A stretch of DNA of 64,000 bases, taken from an uncultured candidatus Brocadiaceae bacterium. Its GTDB lineage: Bacteria; Planctomycetota; Brocadiia; SM23-32. The position numbers and the translations under genes are program-made. The notes beneath the pieces were generated by a model. It did no database searches. It was not told where the DNA came from and was given only the letters and a program-made list of their open reading frames with translations. The stretch covers positions 151,828 to 215,827 of the forward strand of contig CAZFSS010000002.1 in assembly GCA_964521715.1 (NCBI GenBank), read 5' to 3'. The first letter of the stretch is position 1; every line of letters starts with the position of its first letter. Below, one piece after another: positions 9,705 through 63,105 of the stretch.

Positions 9705-9810
9705 TCCGCGGACGGCGGCATCGGCCGTCCCGAAGGCGGACCGCCGACGCAACGTCGCATTCCCCCGCTCATTGACCCATCGGTCCAGGACCGGACAGGC
9801 TGCAGCAGCC

Positions 9811-20620: not shown

Positions 20621-21973
20621 ATGGCTCTCTTCGACGATCAGCAGAGCGGGCAAGCTCTTGAGCCGCCCTCGGATGCACCGCTGGCCACGCGGATGCGGCC
20701 GCGCACGCTAGAGGAATTCGTCGGCCAGGAGCACTTCGTCGGCGAGGGGCAGCTTCTCTGGCGGATGATCAAGGCCGACCGGCTCGCCTCCCTCATCTTC
20801 TACGGCCCGCCGGGCACGGGCAAGACGGCGCTGGCCTACGTGATCGCCCGCCGGACGCAGGCGCACTTCGAGCCCATCGACGCCACCACGTCCAACGTGG
20901 CCGAGCTCCGCGAGGTCCTTTCGAAGGCCGTCGAGCGCAAGGGGCGCGGCCAGCGGACCGTCCTGTTCATCGACGAGCTGCACCGCTTCAACCGCGCCCA
21001 GCAGGACGTGCTGCTGCCGGATGTCGAGAAGGGGACCGTCATCCTGATCGGCGCAACGACCCACAATCCCTTCCACTCGATCAACTCGCCGCTCCTGTCG
21101 CGCTCGCAGATATTTCAGTTCAAGCCGCTCGGCCGCGAGCACCTGCGCGAGCTGTTGCTTCAAGCGCTGCGGGACGAGGAGCGCGGGCTGGGCCGGCATC
21201 CCGTGGACCCCGACGACGACGCCCTCGACCTCCTTGCCGAGATGTGCGACGGCGACGCCCGGCGCGCGCTCAACTCGCTCGAGGTCGGCGTGCTGAGCAC
21301 CGAGCCGGGGCCGGGCGGGCGGGTCCGCTTCGACCTGGCCCTCGCCGAAGCCTCCATCCAGCGCAAGGCCCTCGTCTACGACCGCGACGAGGACGAGCAT
21401 TACGACACTGCCAGCGCCTTCATCAAAAGCATGAGGGGCAGCGACCCGGACGCCGCCCTCTACTGGATGGCCAAGATGCTCGAAGGCGGAGAGGACCCGC
21501 GCTTCATCGCGCGCCGCATCGTCATCTGCGCCGCAGAGGACGTGGGCAACGCCGCCCCTTACGCCCTGGTGCTGGCGACCGCCGCTCAGCAGGCCGTCGA
21601 GTTCGTCGGCATGCCAGAGGCGAGGATCCCCCTCGCCCAGGCCGTCACCTACATCGCCTGCGCGCCGAAGAGCAACGCCTCCTGCATGGCCATTGACGCG
21701 GCGGAGAAGGACGTGCGGGAGGGCCGCACGCTCCCAGTGCCCGACCATCTGAAGGACGCCAGCTATCCGGGCGCCGAGCGCCTCGGGCACGGCAAGGGCT
21801 ACAAGTACGCGCACAGCTACGAGGGGCACTGGGTAGACCAGGACTACATCCCCACCACGCGCATCTACTATCGCCCGACCGAGCAGGGGCACGAGAAGAA
21901 CCTCAAGGCCCGCCTCGACGCCATCCGCAAGGCCCGCGGAATCGAAGACAAGCCGCAGGACGACGCCAGGTAA
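20621..21973 (+). CDS. rarA: Replication-associated recombination protein A (AAA+ ATPase RarA/MgsA)
   Basis: Walker A GPPGTGKT, Walker B LFIDELHRF, sensor motifs and the MgsA C-terminal domain. 450 aa. Confidence 0.9.
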   Translation: MALFDDQQSGQALEPPSDAPLATRMRPRTLEEFVGQEHFVGEGQLLWRMIKADRLASLIFYGPPGTGKTALAYVIARRTQAHFEPIDATTSNVAELREVLSKAVERKGRGQRTVLFIDELHRFNRAQQDVLLPDVEKGTVILIGATTHNPFHSINSPLLSRSQIFQFKPLGREHLRELLLQALRDEERGLGRHPVDPDDDALDLLAEMCDGDARRALNSLEVGVLSTEPGPGGRVRFDLALAEASIQRKALVYDRDEDEHYDTASAFIKSMRGSDPDAALYWMAKMLEGGEDPRFIARRIVICAAEDVGNAAPYALVLATAAQQAVEFVGMPEARIPLAQAVTYIACAPKSNASCMAIDAAEKDVREGRTLPVPDHLKDASYPGAERLGHGKGYKYAHSYEGHWVDQDYIPTTRIYYRPTEQGHEKNLKARLDAIRKARGIEDKPQDDAR

Positions 21974-22006
21974 CCACAACGACACAACGAGCACGACGAG
22001 GCACGG
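21974..22006. repeat. Left arm of inverted repeat flanking the GxxExxY gene (AACCACAACGACACAACGAGCACGACGAGGCAC)
   Basis: Its reverse complement matches 22418..22450 at about 80% identity, and it matches the left arm of the hairpin element at 23605..23700. Confidence 0.65.
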
Positions 22007-22008
22007 AG

Positions 22009-22413
22009 TTGGGAGAAGGGGTGCAGTTCGAGCCGGTCCCGCCGGAGACAGAGGCCGTTGCGGCGAACGTCATCGAGGCCGCATTCCGCGTCCACCGCGC
22101 CTTGGGCCCGGGCCTGCTCGAATCTGCCTACGAGGCCTGCGTGTGTCACGAACTAGGCAAGTTGGGCGTCCCATTCGAGCGCCAGATCGACGTCCCCCTC
22201 GAATACGACGGCGTCCGCCTGGGTATAGGTCTACGCCTGGACCTGCTGGTCGGTGAGCGCGTCGTCGTTGAACTGAAAGCCGTGGAGAGGATCCAGCCGC
22301 TCCATGAAGCCCAGTTGCTGACGTACATGAAGTTGACGGGGGTGCGTCTCGGGCTGCTCCTCAACTTCGACGTGAAGCAGTTGAAGGACGGCATAGTGAG
22401 GATGGTCCTGTGA
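22009..22413 (+). CDS. GxxExxY family protein (PD-(D/E)xK-like)
   Basis: 134 aa with the motif GLLESAY (G-x-x-E-x-x-Y) and the overall pattern of the GxxExxY family. Bracketed by inverted repeats. Confidence 0.7.
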   Translation: MGEGVQFEPVPPETEAVAANVIEAAFRVHRALGPGLLESAYEACVCHELGKLGVPFERQIDVPLEYDGVRLGIGLRLDLLVGERVVVELKAVERIQPLHEAQLLTYMKLTGVRLGLLLNFDVKQLKDGIVRMVL

Positions 22414-22417
22414 TGCC

Positions 22418-22450
22418 CGTCAACGTCGTGGGCGTCGTGTCGTCGTGGTT
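22418..22450. repeat. Right arm of inverted repeat flanking the GxxExxY gene (GTCAACGTCGTGGGCGTCGTGTCGTCGTGGTTCC)
   Basis: Reverse complement of the 21974..22006 arm. Contains CGTCGTGTCGTCGTGGTT, the exact complement of the left arm of the 23605..23700 hairpin. Confidence 0.65.
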
Positions 22451-23604: not shown

Positions 23605-23700
23605 AGACGTCAACCACGACGACACGACGTGCACGACGAGGGCACAGCAATCAGAGACCGGCGTTACGTAGTGGTCGTCGTGCCGTTGTGGTTAGAAGGG
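23605..23700. repeat. Hairpin (inverted-repeat) element of the CACGAC-word family, both arms adjacent (MITE/REP-like)
   Basis: AACCACGACGACACGACGTGCACGACGAGGGCAC ... GTGGTCGTCGTGCCGTTGTGGTT is seen in the sequence. Its arms are homologous to the two arms flanking the GxxExxY gene. Confidence 0.6.
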
Positions 23701-46150: not shown

Positions 46151-47047
46151 TCAAGTAGCCAGATCTGGTTCTTGAACTGCCTGTGGGCCAATGCCGAAGC
46201 CCAGCATCCGGAATTGGGACGCCAGGCGGTCCCGGGCCCTCGCCAGGGGATCACCGCGAGGGATCAGGGGCTTGCCCGCGCCGAAGTCCGAGTTGCAGTC
46301 GGCAAAGGCGGCGTGGCCGCGGGCGTTGTCCCCGCGCGCGCTGACGTGCTGCAACCCGTCCTTCCACCGGTACACGTAGCTGATGTCCTCGTCGGCCGGG
46401 TTCCAGGTGTAGAGCTTGCCCGCGCGCCGGAACGCCTCGAGCAGCGCCTTCGCCTGACCGCTCACCCTCGGCGGATAGCCGCCGAGCCTCAGCGCCTCCT
46501 GCCGCTCGAAGACCATCTGGCCCTCGAAGACGTTGTGGCACGGGCCGCGCACCTCAAATCTCTCCCTCGGGCCAACGGCCCACCAGGCCGCGCGCGCCTT
46601 CGCGCAGCGCGGCAATGCACAGTGATCAGTGCAGAGTGATAAAGGAACGGATTCAACGGCTACGTCAAGGGGCCAGGGGCGGCCCGTTAGGGCCGAGACG
46701 CACATGGTGAGGTGCCAGGGCAGGTACAGATCGTCGTCGTCCCAATGCGCCACGAGCGGTGTCCCGGCAGCTTCGAGAAGGGCCTGCCGTTTGTGGCCGA
46801 GCGTCGGGAACCGCACCGGATGGTTGACCACGTGGACGCAGTCGGGCGCGCTCCCGAGGGCGATGGGCACCGGCGCGTCGTTGAGGACGAGGAGATGCTT
46901 CTCGCCGGGGTAGTCCTGCAGGAGGAAGCAGGCGACGGCGTCGCGCAGGCGCTCAAACCGACCGTACGTCGGACACAAGGCCGTCACGGACGGCCAGTGG
47001 CCAGTGCTGAGTGGCGAGTGATGAGTGGAGGGCAACAGATCAGGCAT
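46151..47047 (-). CDS. Glycosyltransferase family 2 protein
   Basis: VTALCPTYGRFERL...LLVLNDAP is the GT2 N-terminal signature. Its start overlaps the stop of the upstream GT2 gene by 8 nt. Confidence 0.65.
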   Translation of the reverse strand: MPDLLPSTHHSPLSTGHWPSVTALCPTYGRFERLRDAVACFLLQDYPGEKHLLVLNDAPVPIALGSAPDCVHVVNHPVRFPTLGHKRQALLEAAGTPLVAHWDDDDLYLPWHLTMCVSALTGRPWPLDVAVESVPLSLCTDHCALPRCAKARAAWWAVGPRERFEVRGPCHNVFEGQMVFERQEALRLGGYPPRVSGQAKALLEAFRRAGKLYTWNPADEDISYVYRWKDGLQHVSARGDNARGHAAFADCNSDFGAGKPLIPRGDPLARARDRLASQFRMLGFGIGPQAVQEPDLAT

Positions 47048-48032
47048 GGGAGTCTCTCTCGAGGTCGCAGGCCCAGCCGTGGTCGAGGCGGTCGACGGGT
47101 TCGCCGTACGGCGAATAGATCATCTCGAACCGGCGACGAGCTTCGAGGATCACGCGGGGGCGCTGCGGGCCTCCTCCGCGCCAACTCCCGGAGCTATGGA
47201 GGCCGAGCCCTCCTCCGGTCCGACTCCAGGAGCTATGGAGGCCAGAACCTCCTCCGCTCCAAACGCCGGAGCTACGGAGCCCAAGCCCACCACCCGACGG
47301 CCAGGAGCGGCGGATGCGGTCCTGGCGACTGCGAAGAAGCATGCGGAGCGCGCGGCGGTGCTGAACCTCTTCCGACATCCCGGCCAAACCCGCGAAGTTC
47401 TGGAGCCGGCCCGGGCAGCCGGCCCGCATCCAGGCGCGCGCGGCCTGGCGCTCGACCAGGCGCCGGTCGGGCTTGACGCCCTTCATGTGAAAGAGCAGCG
47501 GCCCATCGCTTCGGCCGGGGCTCACGCTGCCGAGGTCCTTGAGGGCGGCCGCGCTGCCGCCTGCCCAGCGGCCGCCAGGCAGCAGCCGGCGGTTCCAGAA
47601 GACGTGGCAGCGGTCGTAGTGGCGCAAGCGCTGGGTCGAGTGATCGAAGTCGCCCCACATCTCGCAGAGCTGGAGGTGAACGAGGGGCCGTTGCCCCGCC
47701 GTACGGCGGGCGGCCAGTTCGCGGATGATCCCCGCGTTGTATTCGGCGAGCACGTCGTCGGAGTCGAGCCAGAAGAGCAGGTCCGAGTCGGTCGCAGCCA
47801 GCAGGCGGTTGCGGGCCTCGATCCAGCCGAGCTGGCGCTCTCCCTCGTGCCGCAGCAGGCGGATGTGCGGATGCTGGCGCGCGACTTCGAGCACCACGTC
47901 GGGCGTCAGGTCGTCCGAGCAGTCATCGAGCACGACGATCTCGTCGAAATAGGGCGCGATGCTGTTCAGAGAGAACCACAGCGCGTAGTCGTCGTTGTGG
48001 GCGGGGATGAGGGCTGTGAGGCGGTCCTTCAT
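47040..48032 (-). CDS. Glycosyltransferase family 2 protein with Gly/Ser-rich tandem-repeat C-terminal region
   Basis: LTALIPAHNDDYAL...VVLDDCSDD (GT2). The C-terminus SWPSGGGLGLRSSGVWSGGGSGLHSSWSRTGGGLGLHSSGSW is encoded by a ~45-bp imperfect tandem repeat at 47170..47295. Confidence 0.7.
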   Translation of the reverse strand: MKDRLTALIPAHNDDYALWFSLNSIAPYFDEIVVLDDCSDDLTPDVVLEVARQHPHIRLLRHEGERQLGWIEARNRLLAATDSDLLFWLDSDDVLAEYNAGIIRELAARRTAGQRPLVHLQLCEMWGDFDHSTQRLRHYDRCHVFWNRRLLPGGRWAGGSAAALKDLGSVSPGRSDGPLLFHMKGVKPDRRLVERQAARAWMRAGCPGRLQNFAGLAGMSEEVQHRRALRMLLRSRQDRIRRSWPSGGGLGLRSSGVWSGGGSGLHSSWSRTGGGLGLHSSGSWRGGGPQRPRVILEARRRFEMIYSPYGEPVDRLDHGWACDLERDSHA

Positions 48033-48069
48033 AAGGTCCGGGGCCCTTTCATCGTTCTGCCTTCAGGGT

Positions 48070-48630
48070 TCAGGGTTCCTTGACGACCCACCAGCACCAC
48101 GCCGGCCCCGTGCGCACTCGGTCGCCGAACGCCTCATCCACGGCACGCCTGACGCCCCACGCGTGATCCCACCGCCCGTAGTCGTGGCCGGAAAGGACTC
48201 CGTCCCTGCGCACCTTCGGCCACCAGAACGCGATGTCCTCGCGGACGAACTCGTATGCATGATTGGCGTCAATGAACGCGAAGTCCAGGCTGCCGTCGGG
48301 GACCAGCGCGGCGGCGTCGCGGCTGAACTCGCGCAGCACGACCACGCGGTCGCGGAAGGGCTCGATGCGCCGGCGGAATCGCTCGCAGGCGCGGTCCAGC
48401 AGGCGCTGGTTCGGCCATGCGATCCTGCGGCCCGCCCTGTCCGCGTCGTACTCCGGGTAGTGCCGCCACGGGTCCACGCAGTAGAGCTTCCGCAGGCCGG
48501 GCAGCCGCTTGAGGAGCGCGGCGCTGGTGCGGCCCTCTTTGACGCCGATCTCGGCGCCCACGGCGTGCGGCCGGTCACGGAGCAGCTCCGCCAGCACGCC
48601 CCAGCGCGTCGTCGCCTTGATGCGGTTCAT
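48070..48630 (-). CDS. Class I SAM-dependent methyltransferase (TylF/CmcI-like)
   Basis: ELLRDRPHAVGAEIGVKEGRTSAALL (motif I) and LDFAFIDANHAYEFV (the characteristic DxxH..Y pattern). Start at MNRIKA, overlapping the upstream gene by 4 nt. Confidence 0.65.
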   Translation of the reverse strand: MNRIKATTRWGVLAELLRDRPHAVGAEIGVKEGRTSAALLKRLPGLRKLYCVDPWRHYPEYDADRAGRRIAWPNQRLLDRACERFRRRIEPFRDRVVVLREFSRDAAALVPDGSLDFAFIDANHAYEFVREDIAFWWPKVRRDGVLSGHDYGRWDHAWGVRRAVDEAFGDRVRTGPAWCWWVVKEP

Positions 48631-49283
48631 CGCAGCGGGCTCCTCCAGCGTCTGGCGCCGTGGTGATGGATGAGGCCGGGGGCCTCGCCCTTCCAGGCGA
48701 AGCTGTGCTCCCGGCAGGTCCAGTGGGCCACGGGCCAGCCGGCCTCGAGCACCGCCAGGGCGAGGGCGTACTGGTCCAGCATCCACCAGTTTGTCTTGTT
48801 CTGCCGGCGCTGGGGGTCTTCCAGGCCGGCCTCGCGCACCGCCCGCATCCAGCGCGGCCACGACTCGGCGAGCGTAGACGCAACGTGCGCGCGGCACAGG
48901 AACACGCCGGCGTTGAAGCCCGGCCGCGCCGGCAGGCCGAAGTGCCCGCACAGTGCCGACCACTGCGGCCCCCGAACCGATCCCTCGCTCCAGGCCGAGC
49001 CGACCCGGGCGTTGAACTCCGCCGCGCCGGCCGTCAGGAGGCGGAGCGGCCCGGTCACCTCCGTGTCTGCGTCGAGGAAGAGCACCCACGAGTCCGGCGG
49101 CGCGCCTCCGGCCGGCAGTGCGGCGGGCTTGACGCCGTAGGCGTAGTCGCCGGGGTCGACCTCGACGATGCGCACCCGAATGCCGGGATTATGGCGGGCC
49201 GCCGTGTAAGCGCTGGCGGCGGCCATGCGGCGATAGCGCGGATGCGGCGTGACGGCGTAGCAGACGGTCAGTTCGTCAGACAT
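48627..49283 (-). CDS. Putative nucleotide-diphospho-sugar transferase-like protein
   Basis: A LFLDADTEV segment (DxD-like) in 218 aa. Coupled to neighbours by 4/8-nt overlaps. Confidence 0.4.
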   Translation of the reverse strand: MSDELTVCYAVTPHPRYRRMAAASAYTAARHNPGIRVRIVEVDPGDYAYGVKPAALPAGGAPPDSWVLFLDADTEVTGPLRLLTAGAAEFNARVGSAWSEGSVRGPQWSALCGHFGLPARPGFNAGVFLCRAHVASTLAESWPRWMRAVREAGLEDPQRRQNKTNWWMLDQYALALAVLEAGWPVAHWTCREHSFAWKGEAPGLIHHHGARRWRSPLR

Positions 49284-50565: not shown

Positions 50566-50914
50566 CGTTTCTGGCCTCCACGTCCATGAGCGCCTTCGTC
50601 AGCGCCGCCATTGCGCGGTTGTAGTTCTCGACCGCGGAAGTCTCCGGTTCGCCGGACTCCAGGGCGGCGCGCCATGCGTCGAGCGCGGCACGCGCGGCGG
50701 CGCGCCACACGTCTATCCGGGCCGCCTGTGCGTCGTCGATCAACCCGGCGCTGCGGAGGTCCGCCAGCATGCTGACCGTCGAGGCGTAGGCGTCCGTGGC
50801 CGTGCGGAGCTGGGCGCGCTGCGAGCTCGCGCAGCCGGCGACGACCATCAGTGCCAACCAGAGCGCCAGCAGAAAGGACACCCGTCGCCCCACGTCTATT
50901 CGCTTCCTCATTGC
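50558..50914 (-). CDS. Hypothetical lipoprotein (118 aa)
   Basis: Signal peptide plus lipobox (MVVAGCASS). Ala-rich helical body. Confidence 0.5.
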   Translation of the reverse strand, partial: AMRKRIDVGRRVSFLLALWLALMVVAGCASSQRAQLRTATDAYASTVSMLADLRSAGLIDDAQAARIDVWRAAARAALDAWRAALESGEPETSAVENYNRAMAALTKALMDVEARNDE

Positions 50915-50918
50915 TTCC

Positions 50919-50946
50919 TCCCGGGCACGGCTCGCCGTGCCCCTAC
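50919..50946. repeat. Variant copy of the GC-rich palindrome (GGGCACGGCTCGCCGTGCCCCTAC)
   Basis: A one-mismatch version of the 28-bp palindrome at 2939 and 54663. Lies between the lipoprotein gene and the GT ORF. Confidence 0.6.
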
Positions 50947-50949
50947 CGG

Positions 50950-53322
50950 TCACCGTCCACTCGCCACTGGCCTCTGCCGTGCGGCCATCCATGCCTTGAT
51001 CGCGCGGATGGCGCGGTCGCGATTCTGCCAGTGGCCCGGCTGGGCCGTCGCGGCGGCGCTACGCTGCAGCAGGTCCTTGCAGCGATGGCCAAGCCTGGCG
51101 GGGATCCGGTGCCAGGCCGGCCGCCCGCCGCTGATGCAGAGCGAGACGTAGACGTCGTCCTCGCGGTGGCTCAGGCCGTCGAAGTCGGCGAGCGTCGGGA
51201 TTTCCAGCGGCACGCGCTCCAGCAGCGCCCGCCGCATCAGCATGAACCGGCCCTTCACGACGTCGCACGCCGTGCCCGTCGTCGTCCCGTTGTGGTGGCG
51301 GCCGTGCCGGTAGTCCTTGCCCTCGACCTCCGACCAGCCGAAGAAGCCGACGATGCCGTCCGGGCATTCCTCGCGGCAGGCGGCAATCGCGTCCTCGAGC
51401 ACGCGCTCGTCCGCGAAGACCAGGTCGTCGTCCATCGAGCAGACGAACTCGGTGTCGGCCAGCGCGGCGAGCGCCCAGCGCGGGAAGCAGCCGAGGTTCC
51501 GGCTCGACTGCACGGAAAGCTCGACCAACTCGTGATCCGGGGCCCGGCCGCCCTCGGGCGCGTTGTCCCAGAGGAAGACCTGCGGCCGGAGCGTCTGCGA
51601 AGCGAGGCAGTCGAGCAAGGGGCCGAAGTTCTCCGGCCGTTTCCAGTTGAGCAGGCAGACGGTCACGGACGGGTCCACCACGGATGGATTCACCACGGAG
51701 ACACGGAGGTCACCGAGAACGGCAGGAACAGGGGGAACGGCCCCGGACGGGGCCTGGGGAACGGCGACGGTAGGGGCGGTGTTTTGTGTCTTGCCGTTAT
51801 CAAGGTTCTTGTCTTTCTCCGTGCTCTCCGTCCGGCCTTCGCAGCCGATGCTGCTACGGCGGAGTAGGCTGTCTCCGTGGTGCGCTTTGAGCGCCTTCGC
51901 CTCCGTCTTGAGCTCGTTGTCCTCGATCTGGTTGCGGTCGGCGGCGGGGTTGACGATGACCTTGCCGTGCGGAGCGAGCAGGCGGCGAGCCAGCGCCGCG
52001 CATTCTTCCTGCATCTCTCCGCCGACGAGCACCAGGTCGAACTCGCCGCCGATTTCCTGGCCGGCCCGCGGGTAGTCCCGGCCGAGCTTCGCCTTGAGGA
52101 GCTTGATCCCGTTGGCACCACAGATATCCCACCAGTTGTCCGCGCGATGGCCCGGCATCTCGACGGCGCTGATCTCGGCCTTCGGCAGGATCCTGCGCGC
52201 CAGGAGCGTGGCCTCGCCGGGCCGCCATTGGAGCACGCGCGCGCCGGCGCCGCCCGGCTTGTCCGCCGTACGGCGGACGATCTCACGGCAGGCGGTCTCC
52301 ACCTCCGGCAGCCACTCGTGCTCGGGGTGTGGCGCGTCTACGGTCGCGTGCTTGCCGCAGAGGTGAGTGAAGACGTCCTCGACGGGCCGCGTCCAGCGCA
52401 CGGGCGTGTTGCACTCGGTGGCAGCACGAAAGGCTTCTTCGGCGAGCCGGGCAACGGCCTTTGCGCCGAGCTGCCTGGCGCACCATCCTTCGAACCGCCT
52501 CTGCCAGACCTCGCGACCGAACAGCAGCGCCGTGCAGCGCGCGGCGTTCTTCCACTTCTCGGTGCCCGCGTCGGGGACCGGGTTCGCCCCGCGATAGAGA
52601 TGGCGGAAGACGACGTCCCGGCTGAAAAGCACGGGGATATCGAGCAGGAAGGCCTTGACGGCGATGGCCTGTTCGCTGAAGCCCCAGCGCCCGGCCGTGT
52701 CGTCCCAGAGCGTGCCGGTGGCCGCCTCCAGCCGCTCGGCGGTGGCGCGGCCCATCACGTAGCCCGCCCCCATCGGCGCGGGCGAGCGCGCCCATTGCTC
52801 CGTCGGCGCCTTGGCTATGTGCGACCACTTAGGCTGGAGGGCTTCCTTACGGTTGCAGAACAGGTCGCAGCAGAACAGGCGGTTGCCCTTCTGGTGCTCC
52901 AGCCCGTTGCTGCCCGCGCAGACGAAGCACTCGCTTTGCAGGGCGCGCCGGGCCAGCACCTCCAGGCCGCCGGCAGGGAACCGCATGTGGGCGTCGTGGA
53001 AGCTGACGACGTTGCAGCCGAGCTCCACCGCGAGCTTCCAGCCGGCGTTGCGGGCCCGGCCGACGCCGGCCGGTCTCTCGTGCCGAACGAGGCGCACGTT
53101 CCCGAGCTCACGAGCGAACGAGCAACTGTCGTCCGTGGAGCCGTCGTCGACCAGGATGATCTGAAGGTCCGCGTCGCCGACCGATTCGGCGAGCGAACGC
53201 ACGGTCTGAGCCACCTGTCCGCCCTCGTTCAGAGCGGTGACGACGGCGCCGATGCGGAGGGCGGGGACGGCGCCAGGGCAGTCAGGGTTGCACTCGGCAG
53301 GGCTGACGACGCGGACGGCCAC
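50950..53322 (-). CDS. Multi-domain glycosyltransferase ORF (GT2 domain + methyltransferase-like region + second GT domain) containing an in-frame hairpin-repeat insertion; may be two genes fused by the repeat
   Basis: Contains the GT2 signature IGAVVTALNEG...ILVDDGSTDDS, then FDLVLVGGEM...LLAPHGKVIV (MTase-like C-terminus), then the repeat-encoded linker, then VTVCLLNWKRPENFGPLLDCLASQ... (a second GT domain). No in-frame stop separates the parts. Start is uncertain: no ATG is present; GTG at 53322 is proposed, TTG at 53613 in the track. Confidence 0.45.
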   Translation of the reverse strand: MAVRVVSPAECNPDCPGAVPALRIGAVVTALNEGGQVAQTVRSLAESVGDADLQIILVDDGSTDDSCSFARELGNVRLVRHERPAGVGRARNAGWKLAVELGCNVVSFHDAHMRFPAGGLEVLARRALQSECFVCAGSNGLEHQKGNRLFCCDLFCNRKEALQPKWSHIAKAPTEQWARSPAPMGAGYVMGRATAERLEAATGTLWDDTAGRWGFSEQAIAVKAFLLDIPVLFSRDVVFRHLYRGANPVPDAGTEKWKNAARCTALLFGREVWQRRFEGWCARQLGAKAVARLAEEAFRAATECNTPVRWTRPVEDVFTHLCGKHATVDAPHPEHEWLPEVETACREIVRRTADKPGGAGARVLQWRPGEATLLARRILPKAEISAVEMPGHRADNWWDICGANGIKLLKAKLGRDYPRAGQEIGGEFDLVLVGGEMQEECAALARRLLAPHGKVIVNPAADRNQIEDNELKTEAKALKAHHGDSLLRRSSIGCEGRTESTEKDKNLDNGKTQNTAPTVAVPQAPSGAVPPVPAVLGDLRVSVVNPSVVDPSVTVCLLNWKRPENFGPLLDCLASQTLRPQVFLWDNAPEGGRAPDHELVELSVQSSRNLGCFPRWALAALADTEFVCSMDDDLVFADERVLEDAIAACREECPDGIVGFFGWSEVEGKDYRHGRHHNGTTTGTACDVVKGRFMLMRRALLERVPLEIPTLADFDGLSHREDDVYVSLCISGGRPAWHRIPARLGHRCKDLLQRSAAATAQPGHWQNRDRAIRAIKAWMAARQRPVASGR
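51660..51850. repeat. Large imperfect inverted-repeat (hairpin) element of the CACGGAG-word family, lying in-frame inside the GT ORF
   Basis: The left arm CACCACGGAGACACGGAGGTCACCGAGAACGG is complemented by the right arm GTTCTTGTCTTTCTCCGTGCTCTCCGT...GTCTCCGTGGTG. A second copy with the same architecture lies at 53400..53540. Confidence 0.65.
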
Positions 53323-53399
53323 CGGGTCGCGCCGGCAGTTGAGCCGCTTCGAGCAGGAGCAGGATCGCGAGGCGAAGATGCACCAGGCCTCGTACCGCC

Positions 53400-53540
53400 C
53401 CTTCACCACGGAGGCACGGAGGCCACCGAGAACGGCGGAATCGGGGGGCACGACCACGCCAACAGACCCGGAGGCTTTGTTGCCGGTACCAGAGCCCTTG
53501 TCTTTCTCCGTGTTCTCCGTGTCTCCGTGGTGGACTTGCT
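53400..53540. repeat. Second copy of the CACGGAG-word hairpin element
   Basis: CACCACGGAGGCACGGAGGCCACCGAGAACGG ... CTTGTCTTTCTCCGTGTTCTCCGTGTCTCCGTGGTGGAC. Confidence 0.65.
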
Positions 53541-53581
53541 CCCAGCGGCCCACCGGCAGGCCGGCGGCACGGCGCTGGGCA

Positions 53582-54001
53582 TCAGCCAACCGCTGGCGCA
53601 GACTCGGCGTCAAGGTCGAGCCCCTCCTCCTGGGCGGCCTCCTTGGCCACGACCTGGCTGACCATGCCGCCGGCGACCGCCTCGACGAGGAAGTCGCCCT
53701 GCACTTCCGGCCCGGTGATCTTCGCGAGCGCCAGCGTCAGCAGCGGCTTGCAGCGCTCCCGTTCGACTTCGAGCGCAGCCTCCTCGGCCTCCTTGCGCTC
53801 GGCCTCCATGTCCACCGGCTCGAGGCCCTGCCAGAAGCCGGAGGGGCAATTCGCATCCGGCCCCTCCATGAAGCCGTCGTCGAGTTCGAGATCGCCGCCG
53901 CGCCAGTCGCAGTGCGGCCACGCCCAGACCGTCTCATGGCGGGTGTGGCGGTGCGGGCACGTGTGGCAGCGGTTGATTCGGGCCAGCTTGATTCCGTCCA
54001 T
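53582..54001 (-). CDS. Hypothetical protein with N-terminal Cys/His cluster
   Basis: ATG at 54001 preceded by an AGGAGGT RBS. 139 aa. A CHTCPHRH...HCDW metal-binding-like cluster sits ahead of an acidic helical C-terminus. Confidence 0.5.
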   Translation of the reverse strand: MDGIKLARINRCHTCPHRHTRHETVWAWPHCDWRGGDLELDDGFMEGPDANCPSGFWQGLEPVDMEAERKEAEEAALEVERERCKPLLTLALAKITGPEVQGDFLVEAVAGGMVSQVVAKEAAQEEGLDLDAESAPAVG

Positions 54002-54010
54002 CGTTACCTC

Positions 54011-54640
54011 CTAGGCTGCGGGTGTGGTCGACGTGCCAGAGCACCAGAGCACGGTGCAGCTCGGGTCGGTCGTCTCGGTGCATACGCAACCTTCCCCGAC
54101 GCACCATGGGTTGTATTCGTGGCTGCACTCCCAGGTCAGGTAGTCGCCGGTCGGGTCGCACTCCGGGTCCGGCCAGGGCGGGATGGTGAAGATGAAGCGG
54201 CAGTTTCGCCAGCCGCCGAGCCATACCGGGCAGATGCACTGGATCCAGATGACCCAGTGGTGGAAGTCGCCGCCCTGCCGCGAGTCCCACAGGATGATGG
54301 AGTAGCGTTCGCCGTTCGGGCCGACCCAGCGCTTCGCCCAGGTGCAGTCATGCTCCCACTCCAGCACGTGCGCGCCGTTCAGAACGGACATGTCGCCGAC
54401 GGGATATTCGGCCTCGGTGGTGGTGCCGCCGACTCCGATGCAGAGGCAGTTGCGCCCCTGGATGCCGGCGATGTCGACGCAGATGTGGTCCGGCATGGGC
54501 GGGTCGCAGGCGTTGCAGCCGTTCTGCGGCCCGCCGCTGGGCGTCGTCGTGCTGCCCGGGTGCAGGCACTGGATGATCAGGTGGGCGGCTGCGCTCTTCA
54601 GCAGCCGGCCGCTGGAGGCCGATTTCTTCAGGTGGGCCAA
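54011..54640 (-). CDS. Cys/Trp-rich secreted protein sharing a repeated Cys-rich domain with the giant tail-like protein
   Basis: NCRFIFTIPPWPDPECDPTGDYLTWECSHE is homologous to NCRFVAWGPDTPCDPTGQYELQECEDGGC in the 1038-aa protein. The track start is TTG. Confidence 0.45.
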   Translation of the reverse strand: MAHLKKSASSGRLLKSAAAHLIIQCLHPGSTTTPSGGPQNGCNACDPPMPDHICVDIAGIQGRNCLCIGVGGTTTEAEYPVGDMSVLNGAHVLEWEHDCTWAKRWVGPNGERYSIILWDSRQGGDFHHWVIWIQCICPVWLGGWRNCRFIFTIPPWPDPECDPTGDYLTWECSHEYNPWCVGEGCVCTETTDPSCTVLWCSGTSTTPAA

Positions 54641-54662
54641 GTGTTACTCCGTGCTCCGAGAA

Positions 54663-54690
54663 GTAGGGGCACGGCGCGCCGTGCCCCTAC
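54663..54690. repeat. Perfect 28-bp GC-rich palindrome GTAGGGGCACGGCGCGCCGTGCCCCTAC (copy 2; extended to 32 bp by AAGTAG/CTACTT)
   Basis: Identical to 2939..2966. Sits between two minus-strand phage-region genes. Confidence 0.8.
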
Positions 54691-54698
54691 TTCAATGT

Positions 54699-56761
54699 CT
54701 AACACGGCTCGGGCGTGTCGATGGTCACGCGCACCTCAGGGCTGACGGCGACGAGGGCGCCCGCCGCGTCATACGTGAAGTCCCGGTAGAAGGCGTAGAG
54801 CTTCTGGTCGCCCGAGTGGTTGTAGGCCATGCGCACCAGTTGCGTGACGACCACGCAGCCGTAGCCGAGAGTCCAGGAATCGTCGAAGGCCTCGTCGGTT
54901 TCGGCTGTGCTCCCGATCTCGAAGCAAGGCCCCTCCGTGGTGGTGGAGGCCGGGGCCGGGGCCTCGGTGGTGTGTCTGACGGCGGGATTCTGGATCTGGC
55001 AGTCGTAGATGTCCTCGCTGAGCGCCAGCTCCCGCTGGGCGAACAGGTTGAGCTCGAGGCGCCGCTTCAGCTCCGAGTAGTCCTCCAGCATGTAGAACGT
55101 GTTGGCGACGGAGATGTCGGTCCTGGCCTGGTCGAAGTTGTAGAGCACCTCGACGGCGTTCACGCGGAGGGCCGACCACTGCATGGGGTCCGTCGGGCCG
55201 GGCGTCGTCGTGGTGCCAGCGCCCGAGGACGTGCTGCCGCCGGGGGTCGTGCTCGTCGTCGTGGGGCCCAGATTGACCACGTTGTAGCGGCGCAGCAGGC
55301 CGAACCTGTCGAAGTCCACGCCGTCGCACCGCAGCGCGCCCTGCCGCCGCACGTCCCTGAGCAGGCGCAGCAGGCGCTCGGCCAGGATCTCCATCGCCGT
55401 CTCGTCATCGGCGGTGCCGGGCTGGGGCCAGCTCGTCACGTGCCGGAACGCCGTGTCGTACACGGTCCGCGTCCGCTCGTAGCCGTAGCAGGCGTACGCG
55501 TCCCCCGAAGGCCCGGCCTGGACCGTGAAGGGGACTTCCGCCCAGTACCATCCCCACAGCTTCTCGCCGGGGCCGAGCGACGGCACGTGCGGGAATGCGA
55601 TCATGCGGCTGGCCAGCAGCCAGTAGACGTCCGACTCGGTGTAGAACGTCTTCGCCCCGGCGTCCGTGCCGACGTATATGCGCGGCAGGTGGCTCAGGAT
55701 TCCCGAGCCGGCGGGGGGCGTGTAGGCTCCGGCCTCGTCGATCGGCTTGCCCGTGACTGCCCGCTTGGGTTGGGCCACCGCGCGGTAGGCGGCGGCGAAA
55801 TCCCGCCAGGGCGCCGCCACCAGCTCCAACTCGCCCAGGTCGCCCGTGCCCGGGTTGCCCGTGCCCTCGATGTTGGCGGGCTGCTCCTCAACGGTGCGGT
55901 CGGTCCCCTGGATGACGATGGTGGAGCAGACGCCGTCCAGGCTCCAGTCGAGCTCGTTGCCGAGCAGCTCGTAATCTGTGCCCGCCTCGTCCTGCCAGTG
56001 TCCGAGCCGGCCGGCCTGGAGGTCCTCGGCCGGGAGCGAGTCCATGTCCACGACGACGAGCGCGCCGCTGGCCGGGTCGATGTACCAGCCCCAGAAGCCG
56101 CCGTTCAGCGCCAGCAGCAGGCTGATTGCGTCCGCCACGCTCGTGTTGTCCACGCTGAACTCGCCGACCACGCTGTCCAGGCTCAGGATCGTCCCCGCGT
56201 CGTGGTCGGCGATGTCCGCAGCGGTCAGATACTCGTCGGTGACGCAGTTGGCGTTGCCGTGGTGGCCGGGGATGTCGGACACGGCGCCGCCGTCCGTGGT
56301 GGTGCCCCCGTGGGTCACGGGGAGGCCGAGGGCGTGCTCCAGGATGTCGATGATGATCTCGCCGGCGGTCCACTTGCCGCCGTCCTTCCCCGGCGAATCT
56401 TCCCCGCCCTGGCCGTCGTAGCAGGTATGCCCGCGGCGGTTCCAGACGTAGAAGCCGCGCCCGTTGATGCGGACGGGTTCGTTCTCCAGGCGGAAGCGCT
56501 TGTCGGACGCCACGTACGTGACGCCTTCCTCGCCGACGCCGCCCGGGCGGACGTCCGTGACGTTGCCGCGGAACAGCACGCGCCCGGAGTCGTCGTTGAT
56601 GCGCACCGCGTCCCACAAGCCGGCCGGCCCGCCGTACGGCGGGTCGTGCCGGGCCGCGCAGAACAGCTCCGCCTGCCAGGCCCGCACGTAAGACGCGCGG
56701 ATGCTCCTGATCGTCAGCTCCCTGTTGCGCGCGCCGTTGATGAACAGCCGGATGCCCATGA
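54699..56761 (-). CDS. Phage tail-like structural protein with Thr/Pro-rich linker (687 aa)
   Basis: ATG at 56761. A large beta-rich protein with a TTTSTTPGGSTSSGAGTTTTPGPT linker, lying in the phage structural block. Confidence 0.5.
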
Positions 56762-56770
56762 CTCCTCGCT

Positions 56771-59700
56771 TCAGACGTAGAGAGTGACCTCGGACGGACA
56801 GTCGCTGCAGGTGCCGCCCGTCTTCGAGTAGGTGCCGCCCGGACACGATTGCGCGTAGGCCGTCTTCTGATAGATGCAGGTCTTGCCGGTCGGGCCGTGC
56901 GTGACGGTGAACTTCCATGCGCCCGCCAAGCAGGTGAGGTTGCCGGAGGTGCACGAGCCGGCCGCCTGGCTCATAGGCCAGATGCAGTCGCTCGACCGCG
57001 TCCACTTCATCGTGGTGCCGGAGCACGCGACTGCGTGGCCGCACTTCATGCCGGCGAAGCCCGCGCACGAGTAGGTCGCCGCGCATGTGCCCGTGCAGTA
57101 CGACGAGCTCGGGCAAGCCGGGACCGGCGGCGCTTCAGTCGTCGTCGTAGCCTCTTCCGTGGTCGTAGTCGTCCCTGGAAGAGTCGTGGTGCTCGTCGTG
57201 GTTCCCGCCTTCGTCGTAGTCGTCGCACACGGGGCCACAACGCACGTGGCGCCAACCGATTTCTCGCAACTGCCCCCGTCGGCGCAGCCCGCGTCGTTGC
57301 AGTCCAGCTCGCTGTAGACCCCTGCCGGCTCGCAGGGCCAATTGTCGTCCGGGCCCGCCCAAATCTTCGAGCACCCGCCGCCGTACGGGCCGACGGTCAG
57401 GCCCACGTTGTAGCGATTCACGCCCGTGCGGGCGACTTCGACGGCCACATCCTCGTCCTGGTACAGCCAGTAGCAGTCCGGATGCTGCCGGGTGGCCTGC
57501 CAGGTGCCGTTGCCGGCTGCGAAATCTCCGCCCAGCCCGGCGAACGTCACGCAGTAGGCCTCGAGAACGGGCGGCTCGCAGTCGTCGCAGTCCGGCTCCT
57601 CCGTCGTCGTGCTGCCCGGCTCCGTTGTCGTTGTCGTCTTGGGAAGGGTCGTCGTGCTCGTTGTGCTCGTCGTGGTTTCCTGGGGCCCCGGCGCCTGGCC
57701 GCAGCGATAGACGTCGAGCCACATCCCGCAGCACTCGCCCATCTCGGCGTTCTCGTAGCGCCCGTCCGGGCAGTCGGAGCAGTTCCGCGCCATCGGGAAC
57801 TTGAACGTGCAGTCGATCCCATCGCCGTGGACGGTGAAGTACCAGTAGGCCTGGTTGTTCGCTTCATCGTACGTGCAGTCGATTTTGCTGACGGTCAGGC
57901 CGTCCGGCGCCTCGGTATTGAGCCAGAAGCATTCGCTCCGGCCGTTGCTCCAGCGGATCCAGCCGGCCTCGCTCCCGCACCATCCCGGCCACCACGCCTC
58001 ATAGCACTCGTCGCACATGTTCTGGCAGTACGCGCCCGTCGGGCCGCAGGTATCGGCGTAGACCGTGAGCGAGTCGCCGACGTAATCCGCGCAGCAGGCC
58101 GGGCCGGAGACCAGGTCGAATGCCCCCTCCGGGCAGGCCGGCGTGTGGGCCGCCAGCTCGTAGACGCAGTTGAGGCAGCCGCACGTCCCGCAGTAGGCCG
58201 TGAACGTCCAGACCCCCTCGCCGACGCAATGAATTGCATTGAGCGTCCAGCCGGACGGAATCGTCCCCGGGACCGGCTCCCAGACGCACACCTCCTCCAT
58301 CAGCTCGAACCGCGCGGTCCCCGCCGAACACTTCTTGCCCGGCGGCGGCGGGCAGGGATACGCCGGCAGGTCCACATAAAGTTCCGAGCAACAGTAGTTG
58401 CACAGGCCGCCGCAGAGGCACCCATCCAGCTCGTCTCCGTCGTCCGGCCCGAAGACCCAGATCGCGCTCTCGGCCCCGCTCTCCTCACAGGTATTCCCGT
58501 CGAAGCAGCCGCCGTCCTCACACTCCTGCAGTTCGTACTGGCCGGTCGGGTCACACGGCGTGTCCGGCCCCCACGCCACGAACCGGCAGTTTGGGTTCAG
58601 CGCGTAACTGATCTCCCAGCGGCCGTTCGCGGCGTCCCATTCGAGCGCCAGGTCGAGCCCGCCGTAGGTCTGTTCCCAGCGGCAACCGTTCTCCCAGTCC
58701 AGCCAGTGCACGCCGTTCAGAGGGGCGAAGTCGCCCGTCATCTGGCAGAACAGCACCCGGTAGTCGGCCTTTAGCGGCGGCTCGCAGCCGCCCTCCGTGG
58801 TCGTCGTTCCCGGCAGAGCGGTGGTCGTCGCCGGCGGCGTGCTCGTTGTGGCAGGTGGCGTCGTGGTGCCGCCGGGCGCCGTCGTCGTCGTGCCCGGCTC
58901 CGCCGTGGTCGTGGTACCCGCCTCCGCCGTGGTCGTGCTGGCCACTTCCCCCGTCGTGCTGGTCACTGCCGTCAGCGTCGTCGTCGTGCCCGTCGTGCTC
59001 GTCGTGGTTTCCGCGGGCGGCGTCGTCTCCGGCGGCTCGACCGGATGCGTCGTCGTGGTGGGCAGCGGCGCCTCCGTCGTGGTCCACTCCGCGCAGTTCA
59101 CCTCCATCGCGAAGGTGGCCTCGAACGCCGTGTGCCGCCTGTCCGTGTGCACCGGCCGCATGTCCTCCAGCACGACGCCGGCGAACGTGTTTCCGTTTCC
59201 GGTCAGGTCGACGGGCCGCGGGCCGATCTCGCGCTCCAGGTCCTCCAGGTAGCGGGCGAGGTTCTGGGCGCTCACGGCGGCATAGGACCGGACGATGAAG
59301 CGGATGGCCGCGCCGCGCGCCGGCCCGCGCGCCCTGGCCCCGCGCGCCCGCGGGATCTCGCGCAGCGGGTAGTCCCGCTGCATGTCGATCCGCATGCCTT
59401 CAGCGTGGTGACCCAGCGCCACGCCGCCGGCGGCGTAGTCGAGGAGCGTCCCCGTGCCGGCATAGACGTCCGGCGCGTCGGGCGCCGGGAATGACGGCCA
59501 CGGCTCGCTCGACTTCTCCGGGCTGCCGAACTGGAGCGACAGGTCAACGAAGCGGTAGGCGCGCACCTCCGCCAGGCCGTCAACGCAGACGCTCTCGCCG
59601 AACGTGGCCCGCTTGGCGAAGTTGTCCTCGAAGGCAACCGTGCCCGGCGCCGAGCAAGCCAGTGCCCGCAGGCGCTCGTAGGCGTAGCGCTCGGCGTCGC

Positions 59701-59887
59701 CCAAGTTCGCGCGGAGCCGCTGCCCGGTGACGTGAACGCCCATCACGCCGCCGCCCGAATCGAAGAGCGCGGCAGGCTCGCCGTGCGGCGTCAGCGACGC
59801 GTTGCGGCGCACCGCCCCCGGCGTGGCGAAGACGTGCTCGCCCAGCTCGATCGCGATCTTGCCGTCGTCGAAGTATCCCTGCCCCAT
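56771..59887 (-). CDS. Giant phage tail/fibre-like protein (1038 aa) with Thr-rich linkers and three or more copies of a ~80-aa Cys-rich repeat domain
   Basis: ATG at 59887. An N-terminal ~290-aa domain is followed by long T/P/A linkers and repeated W..W..C.W...NC.F..GPD.PCDPTG.Y.L.EC modules. Confidence 0.55.
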   Translation of the reverse strand: MGQGYFDDGKIAIELGEHVFATPGAVRRNASLTPHGEPAALFDSGGGVMGVHVTGQRLRANLGDAERYAYERLRALACSAPGTVAFEDNFAKRATFGESVCVDGLAEVRAYRFVDLSLQFGSPEKSSEPWPSFPAPDAPDVYAGTGTLLDYAAGGVALGHHAEGMRIDMQRDYPLREIPRARGARARGPARGAAIRFIVRSYAAVSAQNLARYLEDLEREIGPRPVDLTGNGNTFAGVVLEDMRPVHTDRRHTAFEATFAMEVNCAEWTTTEAPLPTTTTHPVEPPETTPPAETTTSTTGTTTTLTAVTSTTGEVASTTTAEAGTTTTAEPGTTTTAPGGTTTPPATTSTPPATTTALPGTTTTEGGCEPPLKADYRVLFCQMTGDFAPLNGVHWLDWENGCRWEQTYGGLDLALEWDAANGRWEISYALNPNCRFVAWGPDTPCDPTGQYELQECEDGGCFDGNTCEESGAESAIWVFGPDDGDELDGCLCGGLCNYCCSELYVDLPAYPCPPPPGKKCSAGTARFELMEEVCVWEPVPGTIPSGWTLNAIHCVGEGVWTFTAYCGTCGCLNCVYELAAHTPACPEGAFDLVSGPACCADYVGDSLTVYADTCGPTGAYCQNMCDECYEAWWPGWCGSEAGWIRWSNGRSECFWLNTEAPDGLTVSKIDCTYDEANNQAYWYFTVHGDGIDCTFKFPMARNCSDCPDGRYENAEMGECCGMWLDVYRCGQAPGPQETTTSTTSTTTLPKTTTTTEPGSTTTEEPDCDDCEPPVLEAYCVTFAGLGGDFAAGNGTWQATRQHPDCYWLYQDEDVAVEVARTGVNRYNVGLTVGPYGGGCSKIWAGPDDNWPCEPAGVYSELDCNDAGCADGGSCEKSVGATCVVAPCATTTTKAGTTTSTTTLPGTTTTTEEATTTTEAPPVPACPSSSYCTGTCAATYSCAGFAGMKCGHAVACSGTTMKWTRSSDCIWPMSQAAGSCTSGNLTCLAGAWKFTVTHGPTGKTCIYQKTAYAQSCPGGTYSKTGGTCSDCPSEVTLYV

Positions 59888-59941
59888 CAGGTAGCCCCGT
59901 GTTCCCTCTGGCCGTTGATCGGCGCGGCCAATGGATTCCGG

Positions 59942-60184
59942 CTAACTCCTGGCCGTCGCCAGCCGTTTGAGCTGCCGCTTGACGCGATCAAGGTCTTCCT
60001 TCATCGAGTTGACGATTGCCAGGTTCCGCTGGTGCAATCGAAGGCTCTGCTCGGCGAGAGCCGCAACCAGGCTCCGGACCGACTCCAGGGCGCGCTGCTC
60101 CTGGCGCCAGCGCTCGGCCGACTCCTCGCAGGCTTCGCGAAGGCGTTCCAGCTCGGCATCGAGGGACGGTCTGATCTCGCTCAC
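59942..60184 (-). CDS. Small coiled-coil protein (80 aa), possible assembly chaperone
   Basis: Its stop overlaps the start region of the downstream gene. Heptad-like helical sequence. Confidence 0.4.
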   Translation of the reverse strand: MSEIRPSLDAELERLREACEESAERWRQEQRALESVRSLVAALAEQSLRLHQRNLAIVNSMKEDLDRVKRQLKRLATARS

Positions 60185-61107
60185 GGGCTCTCCCCTTCGG
60201 TGGTGGTCCGGGCCAGGTTCACGGCGTACACCAGGTCGTCCCCCTCCTCGTCGGTCCCTGCTTCCGTTCGAAGGACGGCCCGCGCCAGACGGGCGGGCTC
60301 GGCCTCCTCTGCGCTTTCCTCGGCGTGGAGCACGGGAAGCGCCAGGTCAAGGACGTGCCCCTCCGGGTGGGCGAAGGCGGCCTCGAAGCTCAGCGTCCCG
60401 CCGCTGCGCACGGCCGCGTTGAACGCGTCGCCGTCGTCCAGCTTCCGTAGCTCGACGGAGACGGCCCGCTGGCCGGCCGCCAGGAACGCAATCGTCCCGC
60501 CCCGGTTCGGCCCAGCCGCAAGATGATTCCGCACTCGCAGCGTGAACTGCTCGACTCCGGTGACCTCCGCGCCGTCCAGCTTCACGACGGCCCCATCGAA
60601 CACGAACGGCACCGGGCTCAGGCCCCCATAGTCGAAGTCGCCCTCCTCGAGACCGGGGGCCGCCTCTTCGGCCGCGGCCTGCAACGCGAATCGGAACTCG
60701 GCATCGCGCCCGAGCGCCGACGCGACGACGTCGAGTCCGTCCGCCTTCACGCCCAGGTAGCGGCGCGGGTCCGCCGGCGTGTAGTAGTCCATGCAGTAGC
60801 CGGGCAGCTCGCCGTCCTGACGGTCGAGCGCCACGTCGAGCAGAAGCTCCGCAACCTGCGGCCAGGGCAGCGTGACGAAAGCGCCGCTCACCAACTGCAA
60901 GTAGCTGACGTGCACCGACCTGCGCCAGCCGCCGTAGTAGGTGTCCGGCCGGAAGCGCGGGCTGGCGGCCTTCAGGCTGAAGCCGTCCCCGAGCACCGGC
61001 ACGGCCTGCCACGCAGGCTCGTCCGGGCAGGAGCCCCACGCCTCCTCGCGGCAGAGGCGCAGATGGCGCCGCCGCCCGTAGTGCCAGTTGCCGCTCGGTC
61101 CGCCCAT
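60181..61107 (-). CDS. Phage structural protein, hypothetical (tail-associated)
   Basis: 309 aa from the internal ATG at 61107. The position is consistent with a phage structural gene, though no family was recognised. Start is uncertain (the track ORF extends to 61308). Confidence 0.4.
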   Translation of the reverse strand: MGGPSGNWHYGRRRHLRLCREEAWGSCPDEPAWQAVPVLGDGFSLKAASPRFRPDTYYGGWRRSVHVSYLQLVSGAFVTLPWPQVAELLLDVALDRQDGELPGYCMDYYTPADPRRYLGVKADGLDVVASALGRDAEFRFALQAAAEEAAPGLEEGDFDYGGLSPVPFVFDGAVVKLDGAEVTGVEQFTLRVRNHLAAGPNRGGTIAFLAAGQRAVSVELRKLDDGDAFNAAVRSGGTLSFEAAFAHPEGHVLDLALPVLHAEESAEEAEPARLARAVLRTEAGTDEEGDDLVYAVNLARTTTEGESP

Positions 61108-61157
61108 GCCGTTCCTCGCCCTGATGCCTATGCTCGCCCTCGTCGCGGGCCTTGACG

Positions 61158-61607: not shown

Positions 61608-61618
61608 TGCATCCTCTG

Positions 61619-62050: not shown

Positions 62051-62149
62051 GTCCGACTCCCACTCGTCCTGATGGTCAAGGGGGGCGGGGGACTGGGCCG
62101 CCCTGAGACTGCCCAAGGGCGGCCCCCCGTTGATGCCGGCCTCTGGCCG

Positions 62150-63037: not shown

Positions 63038-63105
63038 GCTTCGCACCTCCGTTACGGGTCGGATCGGCGCCTCACGCCGTACGGCGGACGGGCGCCGCAA
63101 TCGGG

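Follow-up and report, generated by a model that had tools for sequence, protein, structure and literature searches.

The DNA analysed here (the window) is a 64,000-nt stretch of contig CAZFSS010000002.1 from an uncultured candidatus Brocadiaceae bacterium, in which a single glycosyltransferase gene contains two copies (A and B) of a palindromic element with arms made of tandem 7-nt words, which we call the word hairpin. The gene lies at 50950..53613 on the minus strand and consists of an 887-aa open reading frame (ORF) with a TTG start. Its product begins with an N-terminal peptide, followed by a Cys-rich module and a GT2 domain (together aa 75–400), a degenerate methyltransferase-like Rossmann domain (about aa 455–558 or 459–561), and a GT64-like C-terminal domain (aa 646–880), the latter assigned from a weak Pfam GT64 match and further domain comparison. 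Pfam matches the GT2 domain at aa 121–304 (E = 1.5e-22), and the fold of this part is nearest to that of polypeptide N-acetylgalactosamine (GalNAc)-transferases (Foldseek, E about 1e-15). An alignment of 17 sequences shows that the three domains are collinear and that the invariant, catalytic columns are kept in the window protein. Codon-position GC describes a single unbroken coding frame, with a GC3 (GC content at third codon positions) of 0.75–0.95 in the host frame that goes down to 0.60–0.65 within the repeats. A search of 5.8 billion proteins returned a record (P0001) with the identical 887-aa sequence. Upstream, a 139-aa Cys-rich ORF (53582..54001, minus strand; motifs CxxC, W.WP.C, and ANCP.G.W) overlaps the start of the glycosyltransferase gene by 32 nt.

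Copies A and B represent one hairpin element, placed in direct orientation and in the same reading frame of the minus-strand ORF. Each arm consists of three tandem CACGGAG words, and the element ends read TTCACCAC...GTGGTG. An initial sequence-only reading of the window had described two such hairpins with these words, and both were borne out with slightly corrected coordinates. Copy B (53402..53534) is the simpler of the two: its core (53404–53532) measures 129 nt, or 43 codons (aa 28–70), with arms of 29 nt (left 53404–53432, right 53504–53532) that are 86% complementary and enclose a 71-nt loop without an ORF. The core has no stop codon in any of the six frames, and five of six frames are open when two flanking bases on each side are included. 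Copy A (51689..51884) has a core of 192 nt (51691–51882), corresponding to 64 codons (aa 578–641), and has either decayed or undergone rearrangement. The outer 13 nt of its arms show 100% complementarity around a loop of about 85–150 nt. A 38-nt insert (51832..51869), which forms a small hairpin of its own, divides the right arm, as seen from the alignment of the copies and the fold. The loop of copy A also contains a 24-nt tandem duplication (51732..51777; 22 nt at 82% identity, spacing 24), and an extra element terminus, GTCCACCACGGA (12 nt, 51673..51684), which is the reverse complement of the right end of copy B, lies just outside the copy. The two copies are 83–84% identical over 57 and 41 nt, covering the arms and adjoining loop.

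The repetition and the folding of these elements both stand out from shuffled sequences. The sequence CACCACGGAG occurs five times, where 0.31 occurrences are expected, a count reached in 0 of 100 shuffles. Folded as RNA, copy B has a predicted energy of –69.9 kcal/mol (z = –2.8) and copy A of –95 kcal/mol (z = –4.8), both relative to shuffles. When an arm profile built solely from elements of other genomes was run over the 64-kb window, only copies A and B were matched (arm E-values 5e-9 to 2e-7): copy B with E-values of 3e-8 and 1.5e-7, and copy A with 4.6e-9 for its left arm, its split right arm appearing as two weak matches. Across 50800–54200, neither strand contains a terminator-like site (there is no GC-rich stem with a T run) or a promoter, and the hairpins were therefore rejected as candidates for either function. 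Rfam 15 has no family for this region of the window or for 14 related loci, returning nothing beyond chance matches to generic microRNA hairpins, all of them below threshold.

Both repeats are read through in the frame of the gene without a stop codon, resulting in the peptides HHGDTENTEKDK...AVLGGLRASVV and HHGDS...TESTEKDK...AVLGDLRVSVV. The stop-free, in-frame linkers proposed from the sequence alone thus agree with the translation of the 50950..53613 ORF. The AlphaFold model of the host protein has a mean pLDDT (predicted local distance difference test) score of 78, and the only long stretches with values below 50 (aa 17–74 and aa 559–645) both contain a repeat-encoded segment; the other such spots are three residues (811–813) and the C-terminal tail (881–887). 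Preceding copy B, the peptide MTPSLRQRLA is conserved in two homologues (P0002 and P0005).

The sequence-only reading had correctly seen a GT2 part, a methyltransferase-like part, and a second glycosyltransferase domain in one ORF (887 aa, the second being GT64-like), and had left two accounts of this arrangement side by side: either the enzyme is genuinely multi-domain and has a linker derived from a repeat, or an intergenic stop was erased when a repeat inserted. It had also called for a comparison with orthologues, which we carried out. The 73 homologues, including the identical P0001, derive from Planctomycetota and Brocadiia metagenome-assembled genomes and are mostly, in more than 60 cases, single proteins of 770–990 aa (85–99% query coverage, 38–65% identity), and in nearly all of them the two glycosyltransferase parts are joined in one protein. 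The nearest relatives (P0002–P0004, loci L122/L123), with 62–65% protein identity and flanking genes of 78–83% DNA identity, have the same three domains in a gene without a hairpin, connected by shorter, non-repeat linkers. Since these close relatives are already fused without the repeats, the repeats are not the cause of the fusion. The three-domain fusion predates them, and they are later lodgers in two disordered linkers. The first of the two accounts is supported by the fused homologues, and the erased stop is refuted for this gene by single-protein homologues with short, non-repeat linkers, an outcome that the initial reading had itself listed as refuting. The host gene itself is ordinary, its long ORF encoding a genuine enzyme whose fusion is ancient. 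Its N-terminal junction is, judging from the protein sequences, variable between split and fused forms in this family: a homologue of the 53582..54001 ORF, with the same W.WP.C and ANCP.G.W motifs, forms an N-terminal extension of P0006, P0009, P0012, P0015, P0018, and P0034.

Comparison of 49 orthologous loci reveals hairpins of the same architecture in about a dozen lineages, at variable junctions of the glycosyltransferase gene. Occupied positions are the N-terminal junction, aa about 260–280, about 395–463, the 577–649 linker, about 690, and the C-terminal end. The words differ by lineage (CACRGAG, CGCAGAG/CGCCGAG, CGCAGAT, or CACGAAG), with a fifth type, ACAGGAT, found only in the flank of L123. 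Even where the words are shared, their reading may differ, as P0006 and P0008 carry CACAGAG words in another frame, which yields SPQRAQRTQRT rather than HHRGTEGTEN. The locus L001, whose glycosyltransferase (P0009) shares 53% protein identity with that of the window, holds five copies in 22.8 kb, two intergenic and three in the gene. Here, a homologue of the 53582–54001 ORF is fused ahead of the hairpin equivalent to copy B, and this hairpin is therefore clearly internal. Loop identities between the window and L001 copies are 0.6–0.85, without a pattern that bears on orthology. A half element, consisting of the left arm only, was observed at L001 12754–12900, where it covers the C-terminal codons and stop of P0009 and gives the protein tail ...QRHREHRERTVVLMGG. 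Two other loci, L142 and L154, are 89–92% identical, and the hairpins at their shared intergenic and intragenic sites (L142 9514–9623 versus L154 about 9700–9950; about 6140–6350 in both) differ in words and loop length. It looks as though the elements replace one another in place, a pattern that suggests turnover at sites that are permissive or preferred, and not a single conserved ancestral element.

The word hairpin is a multi-phylum family. We scanned 185,579 genomes with CACCACRGAGNCACRGAG, and the family counts given here refer to the matches listed. As about 280 chance matches to a single CACCACRGAGNCACRGAG are expected by our own estimate, only paired arms were counted. This resulted in at least 27 complete hairpins, comprising genome loci among the matches listed, L001, and the window with both of its copies. 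Their hosts include Planctomycetota, Alphaproteobacteria, Gemmatimonadota, and Chloroflexota, as well as Acidobacteriota such as the cultured Geothrix limicola, and the range of the family also takes in Bacteroidota. The consensus is TTCACCAC-RGAG-N-CACRGAG-N(1–2)-CACRGAGAA, followed by a loop of about 10–130 nt and the mirror image of the arm, so that the ends read TTCACCAC...GTGGTGAA. The loops are variable, with a purine-rich 5′ half and a pyrimidine-rich 3′ half. Over the family, the 5′ half of the element has 12% T and the 3′ half 11.5% A; because the left half is almost without T and the right half almost without A, stop codons are rare, and an element has on average 3.07 of six frames open, compared with 1.33 of six in shuffles. 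Most copies are intergenic, and in-frame residence is also seen for two copies in an Lhr-like helicase gene (L047) and one in a DnaE2-like polymerase gene (L115). Core lengths are a multiple of three in 16 of 27 elements, or in 10 of 21 after removal of the in-gene copies, which is not significant by a rough estimate. Arm mismatches, viewed by eye in a few elements, are a mixture of G·U and A·C, and are thus silent on whether RNA or DNA structure is under selection. Exact-pattern searches of viral contigs found no match to either arm, and BLAST searches of the locus against phage genomes and of the element against plasmids were equally negative. The family is apparently undescribed so far: we found no description of the element in the literature, of which our coverage was incomplete, so that a prior description is possible.

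The same arms are also found around a gene. GxxExxY proteins (TIGR04256 / Pfam PDDEXK_3, PF13366) are listed with function unknown and have undergone many horizontal transfers (PMC3424549). The family is large, with at least 8,000 candidates, all 8,000 of which scored at E <1e-10. In L093, the GxxExxY gene is flanked by CACRGAG arms of 41 nt that are 95% complementary. Such arms surround the gene in L172, L173, L177, and Bacteroides finegoldii as well, and L171 has the left arm only. Cassettes with variant words are found in one Sphingomonas species, located in the fabD–fabG spacer that is empty in a second species of the genus, and, as a weaker case, in Bernardetia, whose left side has only two intact CACAGAG words. 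In Gemmatirosa, an ORF-less hairpin adjoins a GxxExxY gene. The arms are also apparent from over-extended GxxExxY N-termini, which start with HHRGTEDTE, HHRDTESTE, or HEGHEGHE. Many contigs with a GxxExxY gene are only 0.6–1.3 kb in length, as expected for repeats. No solved structure matches GxxExxY by sequence, no relatives were found in viral contigs, and nothing that ties this family to hairpin arms was found in the literature searched. A Y1_Tnp (IS200/RAYT-type) gene (L173 665–1231) was observed directly upstream of the CACAGAG-armed GxxExxY cassette of this locus, inside a DUF1156–DUF499 operon. Among the loci examined, only L173 has a Y1_Tnp gene beside a cassette, and a tblastn search with this single transposase found no match in the 64-kb window or the other loci.

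The window itself contains a GxxExxY cassette of a sister word family (21972..22450, plus strand), with the gene (22021–22413; TIGR04256 E = 3.5e-41) in its loop. Its words are CACAACG, CACGACG, and CACGGAG, its ends read AACCAC...GTGGTT, and its arms (AACCACAACGACACAACGAGCACGACGAGGCACGGAG and CGTCAACGTCGTGGGCGTCGTGTCGTCGTGGTT) pair in the minimum-free-energy fold. The cassette is situated between rarA/mgsA and a rhomboid protease gene and begins inside the TAA stop of rarA/mgsA. A mini hairpin of the CACGACG family without an ORF (23612..23693; fold –38 kcal/mol, z = –2.9) lies 8 nt past the rhomboid stop and overlaps the end of a convergent GH5 glycoside hydrolase gene (23651–25612, minus strand), such that the right arm makes up about the last 13 codons of this gene and the GH5 stop falls in the loop. 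The loops of copies A and B contain no GxxExxY ORF.

The best explanation for these observations, and one that we regard as likely, is that copies A and B belong to a small, ORF-less, interspersed palindromic element that lodged in linkers of an already fused glycosyltransferase and that is the gene-less form of the GxxExxY hairpin cassette. The elements share two features by which MITEs (miniature inverted-repeat transposable elements) are recognized: terminal inverted repeats are common to dispersed copies (both window copies and 25 further hairpins), and a longer relative with the same ends carries a gene, in this case for a small PD-(D/E)XK-fold protein and no known transposase. Presence and absence of the element are seen among relatives, which at 73–83% identity are too distant to show exact ends or target-site duplications. 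The element is designed around ends of the type TTCACCAC...GTGGTGAA, arms of three tandem 7-nt words (CACRGAG plus 1–2 spacer bases), and a variable loop. Inside a gene, the ribosome would simply read through the repeats, adding low-complexity spacers of 43 and 64 residues to the protein. Tolerance in coding DNA may come from arms that are unable to encode stops, from core lengths that are multiples of three, and from sites in unstructured linkers, and coding copies would survive only where their length, frame, and location are harmless. The elements are presumably mobile, spreading as non-autonomous partners of GxxExxY cassettes, and the hairpin would have no function for the host gene. Movement in trans could be provided by GxxExxY, or by a Y1 transposase (a suggestion for which the one adjacent gene of L173 is the sole support), with either the hairpin or an extruded cruciform as substrate.

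Several observations weigh against this explanation. No empty site was found that is close enough in sequence to define exact ends or target-site duplications, and mobility is consequently inferred from distribution alone. The words of the GxxExxY cassette in the window are mostly unlike those of copies A and B. For copy B, the GTG codons at aa 69–70 could be alternative starts, which would place this copy in a 5′ leader; given these codons and its position between the N-terminal peptide and the Cys-rich module, its translation is less secure than in the case of copy A. Furthermore, the density of word hairpins in the glycosyltransferase orthologues is about 2.4-fold that of the flanks (0.18 versus 0.07 per kb), and both CACGGAG-family copies of the 64 kb fall in this one gene, with none elsewhere in the window. 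Such density and clustering are not predicted by a purely random lodger model, and they also speak for the main rival explanation, in which the hairpins are functional cis-elements: ribosome-pausing RNAs between domains, RNase III processing sites, or DNA recombination sites at which phages swap modules with one another. At least 10 orthologous lineages have hairpins at the same domain boundaries, copies A and B bracket the GT2 and methyltransferase-like module in direct orientation, P0070 has a different C-terminal module past the same linker, and the 89–92% identical L142 and L154 carry different hairpins at the same sites. We nevertheless consider a cis-acting function unlikely, as the closest relatives do without hairpins, and as words, loops, lengths, and even frames vary by lineage. 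The same element, moreover, occurs in unrelated genes and intergenic spacers of other phyla, and it has no terminator-like tail, promoter, or Rfam family.

Three further accounts are much harder to reconcile with the data. Stop-free elements could in principle fuse genes, and a repeat insertion might thus have removed an intergenic stop between two or three separate genes; the variable N-terminal junction, where the upstream Cys-rich ORF is separate here and fused in at least six orthologues, and P0009, where the fusion junction is exactly a hairpin, would fit such a history. The joining of the GT2/methyltransferase-like and GT64-like parts in nearly all homologues, hairpin-free ones included, refutes a fusion at copy A, while at the N-terminal side the upstream ORF of the window retains its own stop at 53582, and no hairpin is present in the fused P0015 and P0034, making this account very improbable. 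We give equally little credence to the linker peptide as the selected feature, with the DNA palindrome being incidental. As this would predict, the two copies of the window and the two of P0009 share a reading frame and encode similar peptides, yet P0006 and P0008 translate these words in a different frame, disorder is predicted for the segments, and identical arms occur in non-coding spacers and around GxxExxY genes. An assembly or sequencing artefact is the least probable of all. Repeats often break or mis-join metagenome assemblies, and the many short GxxExxY contigs are in line with this, but the reading frame, codon bias, and conserved domains run on across each copy, and the arrangement recurs in a related locus for which two separate deposits of different length, one in ENA (European Nucleotide Archive) and one in JGI (Joint Genome Institute), agree at 100% identity over 14.6 kb.

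Beyond the hairpins, the glycosyltransferase gene is found beside a phage-like structural module (54011–63570, minus strand), with a major head protein (PHROG 371, 4e-53), a head-tail adaptor (8e-37), and a tail tube protein (Pfam Phage_tube_2). In L001, head, tail, and glycosyltransferase genes follow one another in the same way, and the domains encoded there include a Mu-like protease, gpT, and Gp36; because of this conserved order, the glycosyltransferase appears to be part of a conserved prophage-like cluster in Planctomycetota. Downstream of the gene (46151–49089, minus strand), two more GT2 genes and a Methyltransf_24 gene are encoded, forming a glycosylation cluster beside the phage-like genes. 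Within the phage-like module, a 1038-aa protein without a Pfam match (56771–59887, minus strand) has a Thr-rich low-complexity stretch (58780–59040). The latter contains CGTCGTG words and was considered as a further hairpin, which was rejected since it is a coding low-complexity region. A Thr-rich protein next to a GT2 that resembles mucin-type polypeptide GalNAc-transferases hints at O-glycosylation of a phage structural protein. Two other inverted repeats in the window, at 48801–48935 (arms of 30 nt, 80% complementary) and 25257–25534 (arms of 25 nt, 84% complementary), lack a word structure.

If these elements are lodgers of the kind that we propose, they offer a first hypothesis for the abundant GxxExxY family, whose members would either be carried by a hairpin cassette as cargo or drive it as its engine. 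In-frame hairpins also bear on gene calling, domain-boundary prediction, and metagenome assembly. Finally, the repeated use of the same linkers by different variants provides a concrete system for studying how elements choose, or are retained at, their sites.

Several known systems resemble the word hairpin in part. REPs (repetitive extragenic palindromic sequences) and REPINs (REP doublets forming hairpins), which are associated with RAYTs (REP-associated tyrosine transposases), are likewise short, non-autonomous, interspersed hairpins present in many copies, and their lineage-specific variants suggest co-evolution with a cognate protein (PMC3116915, PMC3733652). By definition, a REP has a GTAG or CGTC tag at one end of a 20–40 nt imperfect palindrome (PMC3733652). 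The word hairpins have neither tag, as their ends are TTCACCAC and GTGGTGAA. In addition, their arms consist of tandem words instead of a single imperfect palindrome, and they are intragenic as well, whereas REPs are extragenic. Intervening sequences (IVSs) of 23S rRNA genes, such as that of Coxiella burnetii with its S23p ORF, are also small selfish inserts with terminal inverted repeats, a long stem, and an optional ORF in the loop, and they are tolerated within a host transcript, which stays functional (PMC4990558). Word hairpins differ in that they are located in a protein-coding gene or in intergenic spacers, have no known RNA excision, and are associated with GxxExxY instead of the four-helix-bundle S23p. 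In mRNA, unlike 23S rRNA IVSs, they would be tolerated through read-through translation. Coding palindromes in the mitochondria of Nematomorpha are a third case of long in-frame inverted repeats with both arms translated (PMC6649704). These palindromes are confined to animal mitochondria, are near-perfect and up to 284 bp long, and do not constitute an interspersed family with a gene-bearing form. Within the word-hairpin family, the contrast lies in the loop, as GxxExxY cassettes carry a gene between identical arms and copies A and B are gene-less.

The closest known analogue appears to be the Rickettsia palindromic elements (RPEs), from which in-frame palindromic inserts are best known. RPEs are scattered palindromic repeats of about 100–150 bp that can occur in frame in genes and be translated while the host protein stays intact (PMC1779305, PMC10969869); a review places them with the prokaryotic MITEs (PMC10969869). 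Copies A and B show the same residence within an intact host protein, being disordered inserts in a continuous ORF between conserved domains, and so do the copies in the Lhr-like and DnaE2-like genes. Going a step further, we tentatively suggest, at somewhat less than even confidence, that word hairpins make up an undescribed multi-phylum superfamily and a broader counterpart of the RPEs, in which the autonomous form carries the GxxExxY PD-(D/E)XK gene, the stop-free gene-less form colonizes linkers of conserved genes (the glycosyltransferase, Lhr-like, and DnaE2-like genes), and elements tend to re-occupy sites with an existing hairpin or to overwrite them. Such re-occupation, if true, would account for the different word families at the same gene junctions. 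The likeness to RPEs is one of behaviour, an analogy and no membership: RPEs are found in one genus, whereas word hairpins occur with the same behaviour in several phyla, with arms of tandem 7-nt words, translation in several frames, and a gene-carrying GxxExxY form.

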